This document shows, in pieces, positions 1 through 50,460 of a DNA stretch of 58,807 bases (positions within the stretch are counted from its first letter, which is position 1; the number at the start of each line of letters is the position of its first letter). The translations under genes were made by a program, and so were the position numbers. Under the pieces are notes generated by a model. That model saw only the letters and a list, made by a program, of their open reading frames with translations, made no database searches and was not told the DNA's origin. The stretch spans positions 64,859-123,665 of the IMG/VR virus record IMGVR_UViG_2788500396_000001. One strand, 5' to 3'. Source of the DNA: a virus (taxonomy: Duplodnaviria > Heunggongvirae > Uroviricota > Caudoviricetes).

Positions 1-602
1 TGCGCCGCCATGATGGCCCGCACGTCAGCCTTGACCATCTGGAGGGTCATGCCCTCGGGCAGGATGGTGCTCACGATGGCGTTGAGTTGGGTCTGGAGCT
101 TGCCGATGCTGGTGCCGTTGAAGTCGTACTCTTCCACGGCCTGGCCGTTGTACTTGCACACAGTCACCTGGGAGCCTTCCTCAGAAAGAGCGCCGCACAG
201 GTTGGCGTGCAGGTTGTGGGTAAAGCGGGCAATCATGCCCACATAACGCTTGGACTGGGCCAAGGTCTGACCCTTGTGAGCCTTGCCATAGGCGGTCTCC
301 ACCTCAGCAAAGGAGACCTGACGGACAGCATCGACCACGGAATACTCGCCGGACTTGCTGTCCTTCTTGACGCGCTTGACGTTGACGAAGGGATCAGCGA
401 TGAAGGCACGGAAGAAGTCGGCGGGAGAGGCCTCAGCGGACTTGACGAAGGACTCCACGGCAGCCGCAATGATAGCCTTGTTTTCGGCCTTGATGGACTC
501 ATTCAGTTCAGCCAAGAACTTGTCAGCGGTGGCCACGTTGCTCTCGGAGTTCAGGGCCTCAATCATCTCATTGATGGACATGGTGGTAGTGTTGGTGTTC
601 AT
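1..602 (-). CDS. hypothetical protein, >200 aa, runs off the window start (MNTNTTTMSINEMIEALNSESNVATADKF...)
   Basis: Hand translation of the minus strand: ATG at 602-600, SD GAAAGGGG upstream, 200 stop-free codons to the edge, strong C/G-ending codon bias. It is absent from the ORF track because it has no stop in the window. Confidence 0.8.
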   Translation of the reverse strand, partial: MNTNTTTMSINEMIEALNSESNVATADKFLAELNESIKAENKAIIAAAVESFVKSAEASPADFFRAFIADPFVNVKRVKKDSKSGEYSVVDAVRQVSFAEVETAYGKAHKGQTLAQSKRYVGMIARFTHNLHANLCGALSEEGSQVTVCKYNGQAVEEYDFNGTSIGKLQTQLNAIVSTILPEGMTLQMVKADVRAIMAA

Positions 603-660
603 AGTTATACCCCTTTCAAAAAAATATGTTGATTATGTAATGGGTCTGTGCTACAATGTA

Positions 661-694
661 AGAAAGCCGGGATTGATGCTATCGCCCCCGGCCT
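661..694 (-). terminator. possible intrinsic terminator or attenuator
   Basis: Minus strand GCCGGG...CCCGGC followed by TTTCT. The U-tract is short. Confidence 0.35.
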
Positions 695-699
695 TGTGG

Positions 700-810
700 C
701 TAGTCTGACTGGGCGTCAATCCAATCCCAAGCGGCGGAATAGGATTCAAACACAATCAGCCGACCACCCACACGGACGCCCCACAGGGCACCCATACGGA
801 AGGGTTCCAT
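700..810 (-). CDS. 36-aa small protein MEPFRMGALWGVRVGGRLIVFESYSAAWDWIDAQSD
   Basis: SD AAGGGGGTG just upstream of ATG 810, TAG at 702-700. Below the ORF-track length cutoff. Confidence 0.5.
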   Translation of the reverse strand: MEPFRMGALWGVRVGGRLIVFESYSAAWDWIDAQSD

Positions 811-832
811 AGTTCACCCCCTTCCCAGCTCC

Positions 833-1404
833 ACCGCCTTCCTGGTCTGATTTGGGCAGACTGGTAGGGCGGTTTTGCTATGTATTGGCGTGTTTGAACA
901 CACCAACCAGCCTATTGTATAGGTTCGTTGCTATGTTCAAACGCTCCCGTCGCGGTCAATCCACCACAGATTACCCCCGGTTGTCTCTGTCCCTCTGTCC
1001 CTACCCTCATCTATCCTCCGCTGGTTTGGCGGAGGGGTAGCACACGCCACGCCCTCAGAGCTTGCACTAATGGCCTAACTCCATTAGTGCCCCTTTGGCT
1101 TGCAATGGCTGGTTTCCCCGTGCGTCGGCCCCGGTTTCTAGGGGACAGCTGTAAAAACGGCTGAACGGTTGCACCGGTACATACATACCAGTTGATTGCA
1201 CCGCCTTGCATACACAAGCCGGATACCGTCCGTCATTCCTTTTTCAAGGTGCATACCGCACATTATGTACCAGTGCGTGCCACTGGTGGGCGTGTCATGT
1301 CGGAGACTCAGCCCGCCGCCGTTCGTATGTGGGGAACGGTACCACTAGAGGGATTCACCCGGATATACCGCCGGGGCCGGTGTGTCAGCCCGTGCCCTGC
1401 TGAC
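833..1404 (-). ncRNA. candidate large structured non-coding RNA (~570 nt)
   Basis: Begins at the predicted +1 of a consensus promoter, has no SD-led ORF and is GC-rich. At least 10 helices are visible by eye, e.g. GCACTAATGG/CCATTAGTGC, CTACCC/GGGTAG enclosing CTCCGC/GCGGAG, GCGTTTGAACA/TGTTCAAACACGC, ACCGCC/GGCGGT, ACCAGTG/CACTGGT. Confidence 0.55.
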
Positions 1405-1410
1405 GGTGCA

Positions 1411-1439
1411 ATCATAGCATGACGGTTAATCGCTGTCAA
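1411..1439 (-). promoter_or_regulatory. sigmaA/sigma70 promoter, leftward
   Basis: Minus strand TTGACA-17 nt-TATGAT with extended -10 TG and an AT-rich UP-like tract. +1 is near 1404. Confidence 0.85.
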
Positions 1440-1959
1440 CAACTATTTTTCAAAAAATCATAAAAAAACCCGCAATCCCTTGCGGCACTAAGAAAAGAAA
1501 TTTTTCAAAATATCCCGTGACACTGTAAAAATCATGAAGAAAAAGGGAGAAACAAGCAATAAATGGTAGAATATGGTAACACGGCGTTTAATTAAGGTAT
1601 ATATTCCATATAGGCGCGAAAAAGTGGGATACCAGACAAGGGGACACCAGACACCAGACAGGGCGCAGGGGATACGGGCAGCATACCATACTAGAAAACT
1701 AGGAATTACCCAGGATGCCATAGCATAGTGAAACGGTAGGGAATAGAGGCCGGGAAAAATGGAACAACAAAACATAATTGGAATAATCAGGGTAATTAGA
1801 ATAATAATGCAAAACAAATGAATAATATGCATTATAGGGAATAGATGGAAACAAAAGGGTAAAAGTGGAAACGTAAACACAAAAGGGAAGTGTAAGCAAA
1901 TGTTTAGAATGTAAAGCGTGATACAATGTATTGAGATTGTAATATGATGGATAATTTGG

Positions 1960-1990
1960 TACTACAGTTGTAGTAGGTTACAGTTGTAAC
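1960..1990. repeat. tandem palindromes with core TACAGTTGTA (operator-like)
   Basis: TACTACAGTTGTAGTA at 1960-1975 and GTTACAGTTGTAAC at 1977-1990. A related ATACAATGTAT lies at 1921-1931. Confidence 0.6.
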
Positions 1991-2601
1991 CGGGCGGGGC
2001 AATTATCGAAAAACAATAAATTAACGAACAACAGTACAATCACTAAACTGCTAGTAAAGTTATGAATCAGCGCTTCAATTTTCGACTAGTGCCAAACATG
2101 AAAATTGAATAAAACAGTGGGGAAGGGGGTATTTTACATACTTTTGATCACTTTTTTCCGAGGAAAACGGGGTAGTACATCTTTTTCACTCACTGTCAAA
2201 TTTTGAACTTTTCCCTATCAAATATCGAACATTTTTCACGGTAAAAACGCTACATCTCTTCTGGCACAACACTTTCAGCGTTTAACATTTTAAAAACATT
2301 TTAAATTGCAAAAAATTGAAACCCTGAATTCCTTCTGCCACAATCGATACACAAAAAAATGTCCGTAAACCTGATGGCTACGGGCAATTTCTTTTTTATG
2401 TGATTATCGAAAACAGTAGTTCTGTAAGCGCTACAGGAACCGCCGAGGTTTCGGTGGTTGATCAATATCGAAAAAATAAAAAAATAAAAAATATATTTTT
2501 ATTTCTACCGGCGACCGGGGCAGTACGTCCGATCGCACCGGGCTGCTGATCTGCGGCTTGGTCAAATTAAACACATAGCGATATAAAAAGTGATATAAAT
2601 A

Positions 2602-2630
2602 TTGACACACAATGGGGGCGGTGCTATAAT
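2602..2630 (+). promoter_or_regulatory. sigmaA/sigma70 promoter, rightward
   Basis: Perfect TTGACA-17 nt-TATAAT with extended -10 TG. It points into the operon that contains the phage RNAP. Confidence 0.85.
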
Positions 2631-2989
2631 TGTAGTATACAAATATTGGATGACTAACATATCTATTGAGTGTGTACGAGCAAAAAAATAATAATTTGCG
2701 GCGAAGCCGCATTTCGAGCGAAGCGAGTCAAAATTCCGGACTCAATTGATTTCCGGAAAACTCTTCTGGATCACCGTTCGTCCATAACAAACATTTTCCC
2801 TGTACGGGCAAAGCGAAGCGATCCGGCGGCGACTTCAGGAGACGCCGTTTTTATAAAATCGGTGATTTCCGGGGGTGAAAAAGGTCCTTGTTATCCGTTG
2901 TTTCGGGACCAGAAAACGAATTCACATAATAAGGTATATATATAATATAAGTAAACCCATTGCGGCACAAGGGATTGAGGGGTGTAAAT

Positions 2990-3025
2990 GTTACGTTTAT
3001 GGGAAAAAACGTCACGTTCATGGGA
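2990..3025 (+). repeat. 15-bp direct repeat, 21-bp period (iteron-like)
   Basis: GTTACGTTTATGGGA (2990) and GTCACGTTCATGGGA (3011), 13/15 identical. Confidence 0.45.
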
Positions 3026-5594: not shown

Positions 5595-6863
5595 TAACAA
5601 AATGGTTCCTTTACACGGTAACGTGTATCGAAAACGTGGTGAACCCAGAAATCTGGGGTGTGAGGCGAAAGCCTTGCTAACAGGAGAAGCTAAGTAAATT
5701 CACTATATTTTTAAAAAACAATAGGATTGGAGGTGAGACAATAGGAGCATTGATTGATTTAACTGGGCAAAGATTTGGGAGATTGACAGTATTAGAAAGA
5801 GATAAAAGCACAGAAAGCAGCAATAGGACATTATGGAAATGTGTTTGTGATTGCGGCACTATGAAATCTGTATCCTCGCACGCATTAAGATATGGTCTTA
5901 CTAAATCATGTGGATGCCTCAGCCGTGAAATTGCTTCACGCCAAAAAGATTTATCACATATGATCGGCAAAAGGTTTGGAAATCTCACAATCATAAATAG
6001 AGATAAAAATCATATTACTCCGAGCGGCCAAAGCAAAGTCAGATGGGTTTGTTTATGTGATTGCGGGAAAGAAACAACAGTAAATTTTTCAGAGTTAAAA
6101 AGTGGACATACAAAATCATGTGGCTGCATGACAAAAAGGCCTAAAGGGTCTGGGCTTATTGATTTGACTGGCCGTCGGTTTGGGAAACTGGTGGTTGTTG
6201 AAAGAGCGGAGGATTATGTTTATAGAACTGGTTCTAAAATAACAACACTGCCGAGATGGCTGTGTCGATGTGACTGTGGTAATGACGTGGTTGTGCAAGG
6301 CGGAAATTTGAGAAGTGGTGTTACAACAAGTTGTGGATGTCAGAATCGATCTTCCAGAGGGGAACGTTATATTTCAGAGTTTTTGACGGAGCATTGCGTT
6401 AAATTTCTTCGAGAATATTCGTTTGATGATTTAAGAAATAGACATGGGAATTTATTGAGATTTGATTTTGCTATACTGGGCGATAATGACGATATTGTTA
6501 TGTTGGTCGAGTATCAGGGCGCTCAACACTATATTGATTGCGGACTGTTTGGATTGTATCAACGCCAATATAGTGATGCAATGAAGCGAGACTATTGTGA
6601 AGCAAAACAAATCATGTTATACGAGATAAGATATGATGACGACTTGAACAGTTCCCTAAATGTTATGCTTGAGGAAATTAATAAACGAAAATAAATAGTG
6701 AATTTATATGCCAATCTCTGTGCCAAGCCCGTAAGGGAAGGTGCAACGACTAATTGTAGTCGTCCGGTGAAACTCCGGCGGCGAAGCGCCACGCCCCTTC
6801 ATTTGGAGGGTGATGATATAGTCTACTCCCCTAATAAATATCGGGAAACCGAGGGTATTTAGG
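5595..6863 (+). mobile_element. group I intron 1 with homing endonuclease
   Basis: 5' exon ends in U with P1 GAAU/GGUUC (U.G). P7 elements GCAACGACTA and GATATAGTC are present, and the intron ends in G. Removal fuses GGINPN|KYLAYLAL in frame. Confidence 0.9.
5741..6694 (+). CDS. intron-encoded homing endonuclease
   Basis: Three DLxGxRFGxLxV...W.C.CDCG...SCGC repeats, then a Vsr/DUF559-like nuclease domain (LRFDF...VEYQGAQHY). SD GGAGGTG favours ATA 5741; the ORF track starts at TTG 5750. Confidence 0.8.
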   Translation: MGALIDLTGQRFGRLTVLERDKSTESSNRTLWKCVCDCGTMKSVSSHALRYGLTKSCGCLSREIASRQKDLSHMIGKRFGNLTIINRDKNHITPSGQSKVRWVCLCDCGKETTVNFSELKSGHTKSCGCMTKRPKGSGLIDLTGRRFGKLVVVERAEDYVYRTGSKITTLPRWLCRCDCGNDVVVQGGNLRSGVTTSCGCQNRSSRGERYISEFLTEHCVKFLREYSFDDLRNRHGNLLRFDFAILGDNDDIVMLVEYQGAQHYIDCGLFGLYQRQYSDAMKRDYCEAKQIMLYEIRYDDDLNSSLNVMLEEINKRK

Positions 6864-7934: not shown

Positions 7935-8260
7935 TAGTTCGTCGCGGTCGAACCCATAGGGAAACCATGGGATATAAAACAACGAGAACTCGGACATCCG
8001 AGGTGTCGCTCTGACGGTAGGCTCCGCAGGAAATGGCGGATAGCAGGGCGGCTAACAGGGGACGTGAGAGCTATCCTGTGACGAGCCTTGCCAGCAACCT
8101 ATGGTAAGGAAGTTGCATCGACTATGGAAAGGGGAGCTGTTGTCCGTGCGGGGCAATAGCAAGACTGAGTACAGTAGGCGTGTGGTGAAATTCCTCGCGC
8201 CGAAGCACGTTGGGCCTAAACGGGAAACCGCATGGCTATGATATAGTCAGTATCTCTATG
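7935..8260 (+). mobile_element. group I intron 2 (326 nt, no ORF)
   Basis: P1 UUCGAU/GGUCGAA with U.G at the splice site; 8-bp P10 between UCGUCGCG and exon UGCGACGG. P7 elements GCATCGACTA and GATATAGTC are present, and the intron ends in G. Confidence 0.9.
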
Positions 8261-13530: not shown

Positions 13531-13609
13531 GGACCTTTAGCTTAGTTGGTTTTAGAGCATACGACTGTTAATCGTAAGGTCGTGGGTTCGAGTCCCACAG
13601 GGTCCTCCA
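13531..13609 (+). tRNA. tRNA-Asn(GTT), atypical G1-C72/U73
   Basis: Cloverleaf, anticodon arm TACGA-CTGTTAA-TCGTA, GTTCGAG T-loop, encoded CCA. Confidence 0.9.
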
Positions 13610-13612
13610 TAT

Positions 13613-13700
13613 GGGTCGGTATGTCTAGTTGGCGATGACACTTGACTGTAAATCAAGCACGTAAGATACACCGTAGGTTCGACTCCTACCCGGCCCACCA
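13613..13700 (+). tRNA. tRNA-Tyr(GTA)
   Basis: CTTGA-CTGTAAA-TCAAG, long variable region, CCA. Confidence 0.9.
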
Positions 13701-13703
13701 TTT

Positions 13704-13777
13704 AGGGGTATAGCTCAATGGTAGAGTGACGGTCTCCAAAACCGGGTATGAGAGTTCGATTCTTTCTACCCCTGCCA
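13704..13777 (+). tRNA. tRNA-Trp(CCA)
   Basis: AGGGGTA/TACCCCT acceptor stem, loop CTCCAAA, CCA end. Confidence 0.9.
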
Positions 13778-13782
13778 CTCTT

Positions 13783-13856
13783 GGATCAGTAGCTTACGGT
13801 CGGAGCGCCGGTCTGAAAACCGGAGGATGCAGGTTCGATACCTGCCTGGTCCACCA
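13783..13856 (+). tRNA. tRNA-Phe(GAA)-like with a 6-nt anticodon loop
   Basis: GGATCAG/CTGGTCC acceptor, CCGGT-CTGAAA-ACCGG, T arm GCAGG-TTCGATA-CCTGC, CCA. Confidence 0.8.
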
Positions 13857-13860
13857 ATAT

Positions 13861-13936
13861 TGCGGATAGGACAAACGGTTAAGTCACAAGCCCCATAAGC
13901 TTCGAGGAACTGGTTCGACTCCAGTATCCGCAACCA
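13861..13936 (+). tRNA. tRNA with CAT anticodon (Met or Ile2), atypical
   Basis: TGCGGAT/ATCCGCA acceptor, loop CCCATAA, CCA. It has A8 and C33 and no initiator features. Confidence 0.8.
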
Positions 13937-13939
13937 CAT

Positions 13940-14015
13940 GCTGGTGTAGCTCAGCTGGCAGAGCAGTTGATTTGTAACCAACAGGTCGCAGGTTCGATCC
14001 CTGTCACCAGCTCCA
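13940..14015 (+). tRNA. tRNA-Thr(TGT)
   Basis: GCTGGTG/CACCAGC acceptor, loop TTTGTAA, CCA. Confidence 0.9.
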
Positions 14016-49048: not shown

Positions 49049-49290
49049 GTAAACCAGAAATGGTTAGGGTCAAACGCAGTAGCTCGAACCAGAGTGAACT
49101 ACGACCTTTACGAAAGGAGAGATACTTCCCGTGACGAAAGTCCGAAACTGCCCTTTGATGCTCAGACACGGACGCCGCCGAGAAATCGAGCGTGCATGGC
49201 GGGTGATGTATCTTACCCCGTTTCATGTGTGGGAGCAAAGCATATTAGACGATACCCTACAAGATATATGTACGGAGGGCGAATAACTTT

Positions 49291-50460
49291 ATGAGCAGAC
49301 GAAGCGGCCGTTACGAGCGCCGTAAAGCAAAACGAGAAGCGAACAGATTGCAGCGAAGTTTAGATGTAGGTGGACTGAACGAGGTATTTACTTACCATGA
49401 TTTATATAGCGCCGGTAAACAGTGCTGCAATGCTGTACGCTGGAAGAACAGTACACAACGATTTGAGTTGCACCTATTCTCAGGTACTGCACGACGCAGA
49501 CGGCTTATTTTAGAGCGAAAATGGGAGCCAGCTGCATATGTTCATTTTATGATTTCTGAGCGTGGGAAGACACGTCCTATTGACGCTCCTCGTATCCAAG
49601 ACAGACAGATACATAAGGTATTCACACAAAAGGTTCTGCTGCCTCTTTATTTACCGAGTATGATATGGAACAATGGCGCAAGTCTACCTGGCAAAGGGTT
49701 TGAGTTTTCCAAGAGAGAACTACGAAAAGACCTGCGCTTTCATTTCAGAAGATACGGAACGAATGGCAGCGTAATGCTTTTGGACTTCAAGCAGTTCTTC
49801 CCATCTGTATCACACGAGATGATATTCAAACGCCATAATCAACTCCTAAACAACAATGATTTGAGAGAGCTTGGCGATAGTATTGTAAACACCGTTCCGG
49901 GTGGCAAGGGGCTACCATTAGGTGTTGAACCAAGCCAAGCTGAAATGATTGCATTTCCCTCCGCTTTGGATAATTACATTAAGTGCCAGCTATCAATTCA
50001 ATGTGCGGGACATTATATGGACGATTATTATATCATCGTCCCTCCTGATAGAGATGCGAAAGAAATCATGAATTTGATTGTCGAAAAAGCTGAGAGCCTG
50101 AAGCTAACAATCAGCCGCTCAAAGTCTCGAATTGTACCGCTAACAAAACCATTTCGATATTGCAAAGCAAAATATCACCTGACAGAAACAGGGAAGGTTG
50201 TTGTTAACGGAAATAGGGATGGTGTTAAACGGGCACGCAAGAAAATAAAAGCTTTCTATCATAAGATTCAAAACGGTGAGATGTCATATGAAGACTTATG
50301 GACTTCTGTAAATGGAATGCTCGCCTACTTTGAATGTTATAACGACCATAAGAGAGTCTTGCGACTTCGTAGACTGTTCTATGCAATATTTGGATTCTCT
50401 CCAGAGCGGATTGAAAACTTTAGAGAAAGAGGAATAAAAGGTGAAATATATTGTTCATAA
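49291..50460 (+). CDS. DGR reverse transcriptase
   Basis: RIQDRQIH, LLDFKQFFPS, GLPLG..PSQ and YMDD motifs; no intron maturase or endonuclease domain. Confidence 0.95.
   Translation: MSRRSGRYERRKAKREANRLQRSLDVGGLNEVFTYHDLYSAGKQCCNAVRWKNSTQRFELHLFSGTARRRRLILERKWEPAAYVHFMISERGKTRPIDAPRIQDRQIHKVFTQKVLLPLYLPSMIWNNGASLPGKGFEFSKRELRKDLRFHFRRYGTNGSVMLLDFKQFFPSVSHEMIFKRHNQLLNNNDLRELGDSIVNTVPGGKGLPLGVEPSQAEMIAFPSALDNYIKCQLSIQCAGHYMDDYYIIVPPDRDAKEIMNLIVEKAESLKLTISRSKSRIVPLTKPFRYCKAKYHLTETGKVVVNGNRDGVKRARKKIKAFYHKIQNGEMSYEDLWTSVNGMLAYFECYNDHKRVLRLRRLFYAIFGFSPERIENFRERGIKGEIYCS

Follow-up and report, generated by a model that had tools for sequence, protein, structure and literature searches.

A candidate ~520-nt structured RNA with covariation-supported helices in the leader of a leftward phage operon

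RNAs of bacteria or phages that exceed 400 nt and have a covariation-supported architecture comprise, to our knowledge, only about 12 classes, most of them without an assigned function. For a long time, knowledge of ROOL and GOLLD came mainly from uncultured sources, and the ROOL RNAs of phages and prophages usually lie near tRNA islands. OLE (RF01071) is a ~600-nt structured Firmicutes RNA that is co-transcribed within a protein-gene operon; it is chromosomal, occurs in extremophilic and anaerobic Firmicutes, and needs the partner proteins OapA-C. RNA-based immunity or early-leader systems are found in phages P4 (CI RNA) and P1/P7 (c4 RNA), phage immunity regions combine a position-dependent role with a phage-specific sequence, and Firmicutes plasmids use counter-transcript control, such as prgQ/Anti-Q of pCF10 and RNAIII of pIP501. 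Both prophages and phages have been described as carriers of ROOL and GOLLD genes (10.1101/2024.12.08.627333), the size and RNP nature of OLE RNA have been described (PMC9723947), and candidate RNA structures of viruses have been catalogued on a large scale (PMC10690425; PMC8040213).

In this study, a window of 58,807 nt of phage DNA, G000:C1:80498–139304 in a 3.67-Mb draft genome, was analyzed, and all positions given without a contig name refer to it. The locus described here lies inside a ~2.3-kb gene-free zone, bounded by leftward genes from 602 down and by rightward genes from 2960 up, and the GC content of bases 1–1440 is 53–61% vs. ~40% in the phage overall. On the minus strand, a sigma-70-type promoter (1439–1411), composed of TTGACA at 1439–1434, a 17-nt spacer and a TG-extended TATGAT at 1416–1411, matched the consensus at 11 of 12 positions and ranked second in the promoter scan, after a 12/12 rightward promoter at 2602–2630. 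Its −35 hexamer and 17-nt spacing are kept in seven related contigs (L010, L011, L013, L014, L015, L027, and L018), and L018 keeps it although the rest of its leader is unrelated. Seven bases past the −10 hexamer is the predicted start, G1404, the first base of a GTCAGC/GCTGAC hairpin. A minus-strand intrinsic terminator (1485–1462), with a CCGCAA/TTGCGG stem at 1485–1470 and a T7 run, is kept in L014 and partially in L010 and would shield the promoter from upstream leftward transcription; since it stands directly upstream of the promoter, the latter appears to head its own unit. The first-pass annotation had already recognized a near-perfect leftward promoter with +1 at about 1404, at the base of this hairpin, and both points held, the predicted start lying at the foot of the invariant hairpin 1404–1384.

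Downstream of this start, a large structured RNA of ~520 nt with ~15 helices is predicted on the minus strand at 1404–884. A length of ~570 nt had been proposed for it, which was shortened because the hairpin at 833–882 was assigned to the opposite strand. In contrast, the earlier view that the region is noncoding was upheld, as no ORF of any length in 884–1404 is common to the homologues, the frames differing in position and frame, and the alignment of the homologues contains many 1-nt indels. We infer from these sequence features that the 884–1404 RNA is transcribed, and on which strand. Contigs from three RNA libraries touch 646–949, 677–825, and 946–1150; they are unstranded, of low depth and with possible DNA carry-over, and the uncovered parts of the locus carry no meaning. 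One of these contigs has a read-2 adapter at position 949, from which the strand is readable only with the library chemistry.

The distribution of the locus was then defined with a protein anchor. Since DNA searches found nothing real, the flanking 283-aa protein was used to find homologous loci, and the contigs of 17 relatives were examined. Homologues of the large RNA region were present in L026 (91% identity, truncated at position 1357), in L010 and L011 (88%), in L027 (86.5%), in L015 (79.5%), and in L013 (71%), and chicken-gut metagenome runs contained partial near-identical matches. The homologue contigs represent phage contexts, with tape-measure, YonV_C, HicAB, and PemK genes. By DNA search, no match was obtained by blastn against INPHARED phages and PLSDB plasmids, nothing by exact-pattern scans of IMG/VR, and only chance matches by scans of JGI metagenomes and GTDB genomes, while blastn in 400 genomes of the family and 23 other genomes of the genus retrieved only a 254-bp antisense module (see below), in the congener G197. 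A covariance model of the central part of the RNA (R1, 985–1150) found only the own genome when searched in 150 relatives, and R1 and a second model (R2, 1151–1242) detected neither a second copy in the window nor a match in the alternative leaders of L012, L014, L016, and L018. Judged from these searches, the family is narrow, comprising the window genome and metagenome contigs, with the partial matches in the chicken-gut runs; all six occurrences of the large RNA are in one context, with a single copy per genome.

Other relatives share less of the locus. L012 and L016 are homologous only below ~910–930, L014 only over 1244–1740, and L018 only at the promoter, so that non-homologous leaders stand at the same position in L018, L012, L016, and part of L014. 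The leader of L018 (L018:2690–3480, plus strand) is a non-homologous sequence of ~800 nt that lies between the shared promoter and the homologous gene. Given its fold z of −5.46, this slot may hold another structured RNA in L018.

Covariation, which the first-pass annotation had put forward as a check, was assessed with RNAalifold on a MAFFT alignment of six distinct sequences, and the prediction was repeated on 40 column-shuffled alignments per strand. RNAalifold predicted 159 pairs, and in 36 of these both sides were changed with pairing kept in at least one sequence. When compared with the shuffled alignments, the minus strand had 37 double-changed pairs vs. 8.7 ± 2.6 (maximum 16), with an alifold z of −7.3, and the plus strand had 35 compensatory pairs vs. 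a null mean of 10.3, with an alignment z of −11.8. As a coding control, the adjacent gene was put through the same procedure, with its first 580 nt taken from each of the six genomes; this gave z values of −1.4 and +1.5 and 19–20 pairs vs. null means of 12–16, at a mean identity of 79% vs. 83% for the RNA. The coding control being negative, the structure signal is not a by-product of relatedness. Six lineages at 71–91% identity to the window give the covariation test limited power, and most of the compensatory changes come from L015 and L013.

The two covariance models gave similar results. In R1, 98.5% of cells were in standard pairs and both sides had changed in 12 of 44 pairs, and in R2, 93.7% of cells were paired and both sides had changed in 12 of 32 pairs; in each case the count was reached by 0 of 500 shuffles, and slid controls yielded 0–2 for R1 and 0–4 across R1 and R2. 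These counts were taken from alignments fitted to the models, and the same swaps are visible in the MAFFT alignment. These results demonstrate that the helices of 884–1404 are kept by compensatory substitutions beyond shuffled, slid, and coding controls.

The covariation also bears on whether the segment acts as RNA at all. A DNA-level element, such as a replication origin or a packaging or recombination site, or alternatively decaying foreign GC-rich DNA, would fit the GC-rich patch at 1–1440 within a phage of much lower GC content, the position of the ~2.3-kb gene-free zone between divergent modules, which is a common origin site, and the mosaic nature of the region among relatives. However, long-range helices, multi-branch junctions, compensatory changes, and strand-asymmetric wobbles are those of a folded single strand and not of duplex DNA, the promoter is conserved and precisely placed, and the conservation is at least that of the neighboring gene. 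Further, no iterons were seen in 884–1404 by eye or in the alignment, the repeat scan itself having covered only 1400–3000. Such an explanation is therefore considered very improbable.

In the folding model, the RNA is organized in four domains, the 5′ domain being followed by a three-way junction, then by a central multi-branch domain, and finally by a 3′ hairpin. The transcript begins with the 5′-terminal hairpin P1 (1404–1384, GUCAGC/GCUGAC), which is invariant, so that covariation neither confirms nor refutes its pairing. The 5′ domain (1383–1243) contains the hairpins 1340–1318, 1317–1285, and 1284–1266, the last of which (CCAGUG/CACUGG) shows U-A to C-G and C-G to U-A swaps, and this domain is retained in L014, where the remaining RNA is replaced. 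In the three-way-junction domain (1240–1153), a 16-bp basal helix carries two hairpins, each with an invariant U-GUAU-G loop, and the basal helix is nearly wholly rewritten in L015 with its pairing preserved. The central multi-branch domain (1148–987) is closed by the long-range helix 1148–1142/993–987, which has changes at three pairs in L015 and L013, and holds the hairpins 1090–1064, 1050–1037, and 1035–1015 and a small GNRA-type loop near 1116–1113; ten pairs of hairpin 1090–1064 are kept, and four of them are changed in L015. The 3′ hairpin (947–887) is nearly invariant even in the most diverged homologue, and the recombination breakpoints of L012 and L016 fall inside it.

Between the last two domains, a hairpin 975–969/961–954 (within 981–954) was drawn by eye with low confidence. 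Its 962–954 arm can pair either with 975–969 or, over a long range, with 1359–1351, and all three segments change together in L015. The two helices would be mutually exclusive and may hint at a switch, the evidence coming mainly from this one lineage. The unpaired elements that are invariant among the homologues, i.e., the two U-GUAU-G loops, an AGUUAGG loop, UUGAAAAA, and a purine-rich junction, suggest tertiary contacts or binding sites.

Most helices named in the first-pass annotation were recovered. It had counted at least 10, and ~15 with compensatory changes in the six lineages are now predicted; the helix at 1064–1090 is confirmed with 10 bp and four covarying pairs, and that at 888–944 with two. 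The element at 1001–1040 was retained in part, as its inner hairpin 1015–1035 has two covarying pairs but its outer CTACCC/GGGTAG helix has no covariation support. The hairpin at 833–873 is real, but rather than being part of the large RNA it is the plus-strand-specific terminator of a predicted antisense RNA.

Which strand carries the large RNA was judged from several measures. Over 826–1406, an interval that includes the plus-specific hairpin 833–878, the consensus energy was equal on both strands and the z was better on the plus strand. Over 884–1404, the five full-length sequences gave a consensus energy of −166 for the minus strand vs. −152 for the plus strand and a mean MFE of −213.8 vs. 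−200.7, the single-sequence MFE of the minus strand being clearly lower in L027 and L013 and almost level with that of the plus strand in the remaining three. At the 103 pairs predicted on both strands, one-sided changes gave 17 G·U wobbles when read as minus strand and 7 when read as plus strand, a split with a one-sided binomial probability of ~0.03. The unpaired bases of the minus strand are 36% A and 28% G, similar to known structured RNAs, while those of the plus strand would be 63% pyrimidine. The small loop reads GAAA, GAGA, or GGAA on the minus strand, that is, GNRA. Given the fold energies, the wobble asymmetry, the GNRA loop, and the conserved leftward promoter, the large RNA very probably resides on the minus strand.

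A functional structured RNA on the plus strand, running rightward from 884 to 1404, for example as antisense read-through, with the leftward promoter driving only an mRNA, was also considered. It would agree with the more negative z of the plus strand, both for the single-sequence fold of 820–1404 (−5.5 vs. −2.8) and for the alignment (−11.8 vs. −7.3), with the clearly plus-specific hairpin 833–878, and with several interior positions that are G·U on the plus strand in nearly all sequences; interior A·C is found on the minus strand in nearly all sequences, e.g., at 1315/1287, 1088/1066, and 924/910. However, the z advantage arises mainly from the weaker shuffles of a G-poor strand, and over 884–1404 alone both the consensus energy and the mean MFE favor the minus strand. 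Moreover, the only upstream plus-strand promoter is at 629–657 and its RNA meets a good terminator at 833–882, no plus-strand terminator was found past 1404, the unpaired regions would be pyrimidine-rich as given above, and the one-sided substitutions would become 17 mismatches vs. 7 wobbles. A plus-strand RNA is thus regarded as improbable, and the minus-strand RNA is considered hereafter.

The large RNA was then compared with the described families. cmscan against Rfam 15, which had been suggested together with the covariation analysis, found no family in the large RNA region at gathering scores, and at E up to 10 (window 500–2100) it returned nothing convincing, only a partial RAGATH-16 hairpin and an rseX-like match; the latter was rejected as merely the upstream terminator. 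An Rfam scan of the homologous loci at E up to 1 gave no match in the large RNA, models of self-cleaving ribozymes and group I/II introns had no match in 884–1404, ribozyme-like matches occurring only outside and downstream of it, and ARAGORN identified no tRNA, tRNA-like or tmRNA-like element in 500–3000. ROOL, GOLLD, OLE, introns, and ribozymes are thereby excluded as family assignments. The RAGATH-16 (RF03047) likeness concerns the minus-strand hairpin 1086–1059, in which the invariant GGAGUUAGGCC loop and its 3′ flank resemble model positions 28–55; however, it scored 17.7 bits vs. a gathering cutoff of 65.6, with an E of 3.6 and 28 of 72 model positions covered, and is a lead, not a match.

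Similar to ROOL (RF03087) and GOLLD (RF01998), the RNA is of phage or prophage origin, several hundred nt long, noncoding, and rich in covarying helices. However, neither covariance model matched at E up to 10, including that of RF01998 with its conserved 3′ domain, so the "ROOL-like" label of the first-pass annotation fails as a statement of family membership. The RNA further differs from both in forming the 5′ leader of protein genes behind a promoter, with no terminator of its own, and in its very narrow distribution, and from ROOL in lying 12 kb from the nearest tRNAs. As with OLE, a large structured RNA would be co-transcribed with protein genes, but there is no RF01071 match here, OapA-C are absent, and the neighboring proteins have no Pfam family. 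The P4 and P1/P7 systems and the pCF10 and pIP501 plasmids share with this locus a long structured early leader, a strong promoter, a small RNA that pairs with the same transcript, and an element-specific sequence at a fixed genomic position, but their leaders are far less complex and of much smaller size. The regulator of P4 and P1 is excised from the leader, whereas the antisense RNA of this locus would be transcribed from a convergent promoter of its own and overlaps the small gene rather than the large structured region. On this sequence comparison, the RNA is rated as a new family, relative to Rfam 15, within the loosely defined kind of large structured phage RNAs. The original proposal of a new large phage noncoding RNA therefore stands insofar as the RNA is ornate and unmatched in Rfam 15, but a free-standing RNA was not borne out, as it has no terminator of its own.

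Several other features of the window were recorded. Six tRNA genes are clustered at 13531–14012 (plus strand), 12 kb from the large RNA. A full-length RT-2 RNA (RF03077, 145.7 bits) is present at 49065–49300 (plus strand), its 3′ end overlapping the start of a 389-aa ORF (49291–50460); the RT-2 motif is known for its association with reverse-transcriptase genes. For the candidate group I introns at 5595–6863 and 7935–8260, the scan of the whole window at Rfam gathering scores reported no intron family, and either they are too divergent for the Rfam model or they need independent proof. The ~1.5-kb region 1440–2960 is AT-rich, ORF-free, and conserved in L010 and L014; it is ended by the perfect 12/12 rightward promoter at 2602–2630, the plus strand of 1500–2000 is strongly purine-skewed (GC skew up to +0.36, AT skew +0.39), and the repeat scan of 1400–3000 found no repeat arrays in it. 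This region may represent an origin, serve as a regulatory hub or encode a further RNA.

Downstream of the large RNA, neither the terminator scan nor inspection of the sequence found a minus-strand U-run terminator between 884 and 810, the hairpin in this interval having no U run on that strand, so that the large RNA is physically a 5′ leader and, as read from the sequence, would lie in the 5′ untranslated region of the downstream genes. The next feature is a small gene of 36 codons (810–700, minus strand), which is preceded by GGAAGGGGG. Its 34–36-aa protein is conserved in seven lineages, a recognizable consensus being kept despite heavy nucleotide divergence in L012 and L013, and it is frameshifted in the G197 copy; an identity look-up of the L013 protein found it not on record. 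The Shine-Dalgarno sequence of the small gene pairs with codons 2–4 in an invariant 7-bp hairpin (825–819/804–798, GGAAGGG/CCCUUCC; 825–798 as a whole), with the AUG in the loop. After the small gene, a hairpin followed by UUUCUU, or UUUUUU in L013, is found at 695–663; it may terminate leftward transcription weakly, and on the plus strand the complementary sequence forms the predicted 5′ hairpin of the antisense RNA. The following gene of the leftward unit (602–3, the first 200 codons) encodes the 283-aa phage protein that served as the homology anchor, for which no Pfam, PDB or useful Atlas relative was found.

On the opposite strand, a conserved promoter at 629–657 (TTGATT-17-TACAAT with TG), which in L012 has a different sequence with better consensus (TTGACT/TATCAT), and a terminator at 833–882, composed of a hairpin and UUUU, delimit a predicted cis-antisense RNA of ~218 nt (664–882), covering the entire small gene and its ribosome-binding site. 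Among nine sequences, the 5′ arm of hairpin 833–878 is variable, its U·G, G·U, C-G, and A-U pairs holding only on the plus strand, vs. A·C mismatches on the minus strand. The 254-bp block 628–881, exactly from the −35 hexamer to the T-tail, has an 89% identical copy in G197. There, the antisense module is at one end of a ~900-bp insert beside tRNA-Cys (L004, G197:C10, ~1455–2395, minus strand), which also has a 72-aa ORF, carries ~32 nt of the post-tRNA-Cys terminator as direct repeats on both sides, and looks like a remnant or a miniature integrated element keeping only the antisense RNA. Because the G197 copy is frameshifted, the possibility was also considered that 628–881 is simply an sRNA gene of the plus strand and that the ORF is spurious; this was rejected, as the 36-codon frame is protein-conserved in seven lineages; both strands of 628–881 thus appear to be used, as judged from their conservation. 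A type I toxin-antitoxin pair formed by the small gene and the antisense RNA was unsupported, the peptide being charged and, by inspection, without a hydrophobic segment.

Just past the 283-aa gene, ~340 nt to the left of the window start, an HDV-like match was detected (L002:12157–12217, minus strand; RF02682, 34 bits, E 9e-4, gathering 44), together with weaker matches to the HDV and CPEB3 models. Copies lie directly after the 283-aa gene in L027 (1995–2055), L015 (1977–2037), and L014 (4381–4441), and a match of 27.9 bits (E 0.19) is placed further downstream in L013 (5828–5887). In the own genome and in L014, the element overlaps the start of a called 108-aa ORF, and in L018 a RAGATH-1 hammerhead-like match (27.8 bits) is at the equivalent position. 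From these model matches, the element is probably a self-cleaving ribozyme of the HDV-like kind, and its presence in the operon suggests that RNA processing may occur in the leftward transcript.

Based on these features, we propose that the leftward transcript would start at the conserved, insulated promoter, at the foot of the 5′ hairpin, and would continue through the large RNA into the 36-codon gene with its sequestered ribosome-binding site and on into the 283-aa gene. The large RNA would then form a leader module that folds independently and exerts its effect on the early leftward operon in cis, with a partner, either a protein or another part of the transcript, bound by its conserved loops and junctions. 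Binding of the partner would set the stability, the processing or the read-through of the early leftward transcript, and the antisense RNA would provide opposing control. This cis-acting role of a new ~520-nt structured RNA (1404–884, minus strand) is tentatively preferred, since the RNA is always between the same promoter and the operon, no terminator follows it, and the long leaders of sister phages differ; that these non-homologous leaders occupy one position behind one promoter fits a cis role that depends on position, with a sequence specific to each phage. Against it, no expression platform was found, that is, no pairing links the large RNA to the SD hairpin 798–825 or to a terminator.

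The arrangement of the modules equally suits an autonomous RNA. The small-gene/antisense module is present without the large RNA in L012, L016, and G197, and the 283-aa gene is present without this module or the full large RNA in L014 and L018, so the modules are separable. The same minus-strand RNA could be a stable, trans-acting large noncoding RNA, as proposed for ROOL, GOLLD, and OLE, which would be co-transcribed and then trimmed or long-lived, and which would bind a protein, form an RNA-only assembly or serve as an early decoy against host defence. The size, the number of helices, and the invariant loops (U-GUAU-G twice, AGUUAGG, UUGAAAAA) and purine-rich junctions, suggestive of a tertiary fold or binding sites, are consistent with such a role, as are the strong host-type promoter and the 5′-terminal hairpin, the separation of the module from the downstream genes by recombination, the probable HDV-like ribozyme after the 283-aa gene in the same operon, and the example of OLE, which is likewise embedded in an operon. 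However, there is neither a terminator nor a recognizable processing site between the large RNA and the small gene, all six occurrences are single-copy and in one context, and no self-complementary loop that would suggest self-assembly was seen. A trans-acting RNA is considered almost as probable as the cis-acting leader, which is retained as the working explanation.

For an RNA of this kind, the large RNA has an unusually clear transcriptional context, with a promoter, a probable start, a locked small gene, a convergent antisense RNA, and a probable HDV-like ribozyme. As it is carried by an isolate genome, direct genetic tests are possible if the strain is available, culturable, and manipulable. 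A broader and unlikely reading is that it would be the first representative of a novel class of ornate phage RNAs of large size (~520 nt) that work, early in infection, as an autonomous machine or scaffold of RNA, from SPbeta/YonO-type phages of Oscillospiraceae whose sister phages have non-homologous structured RNAs in the same slot. No more likely is that, once released from the early transcript, such an RNA would be, for example, a self-assembling particle, a host-defence decoy or an RNA-based immunity determinant. Should the slot indeed be filled by different structured RNAs in the sister phages, this locus could illustrate the modular exchange of large RNAs in phage genomes.
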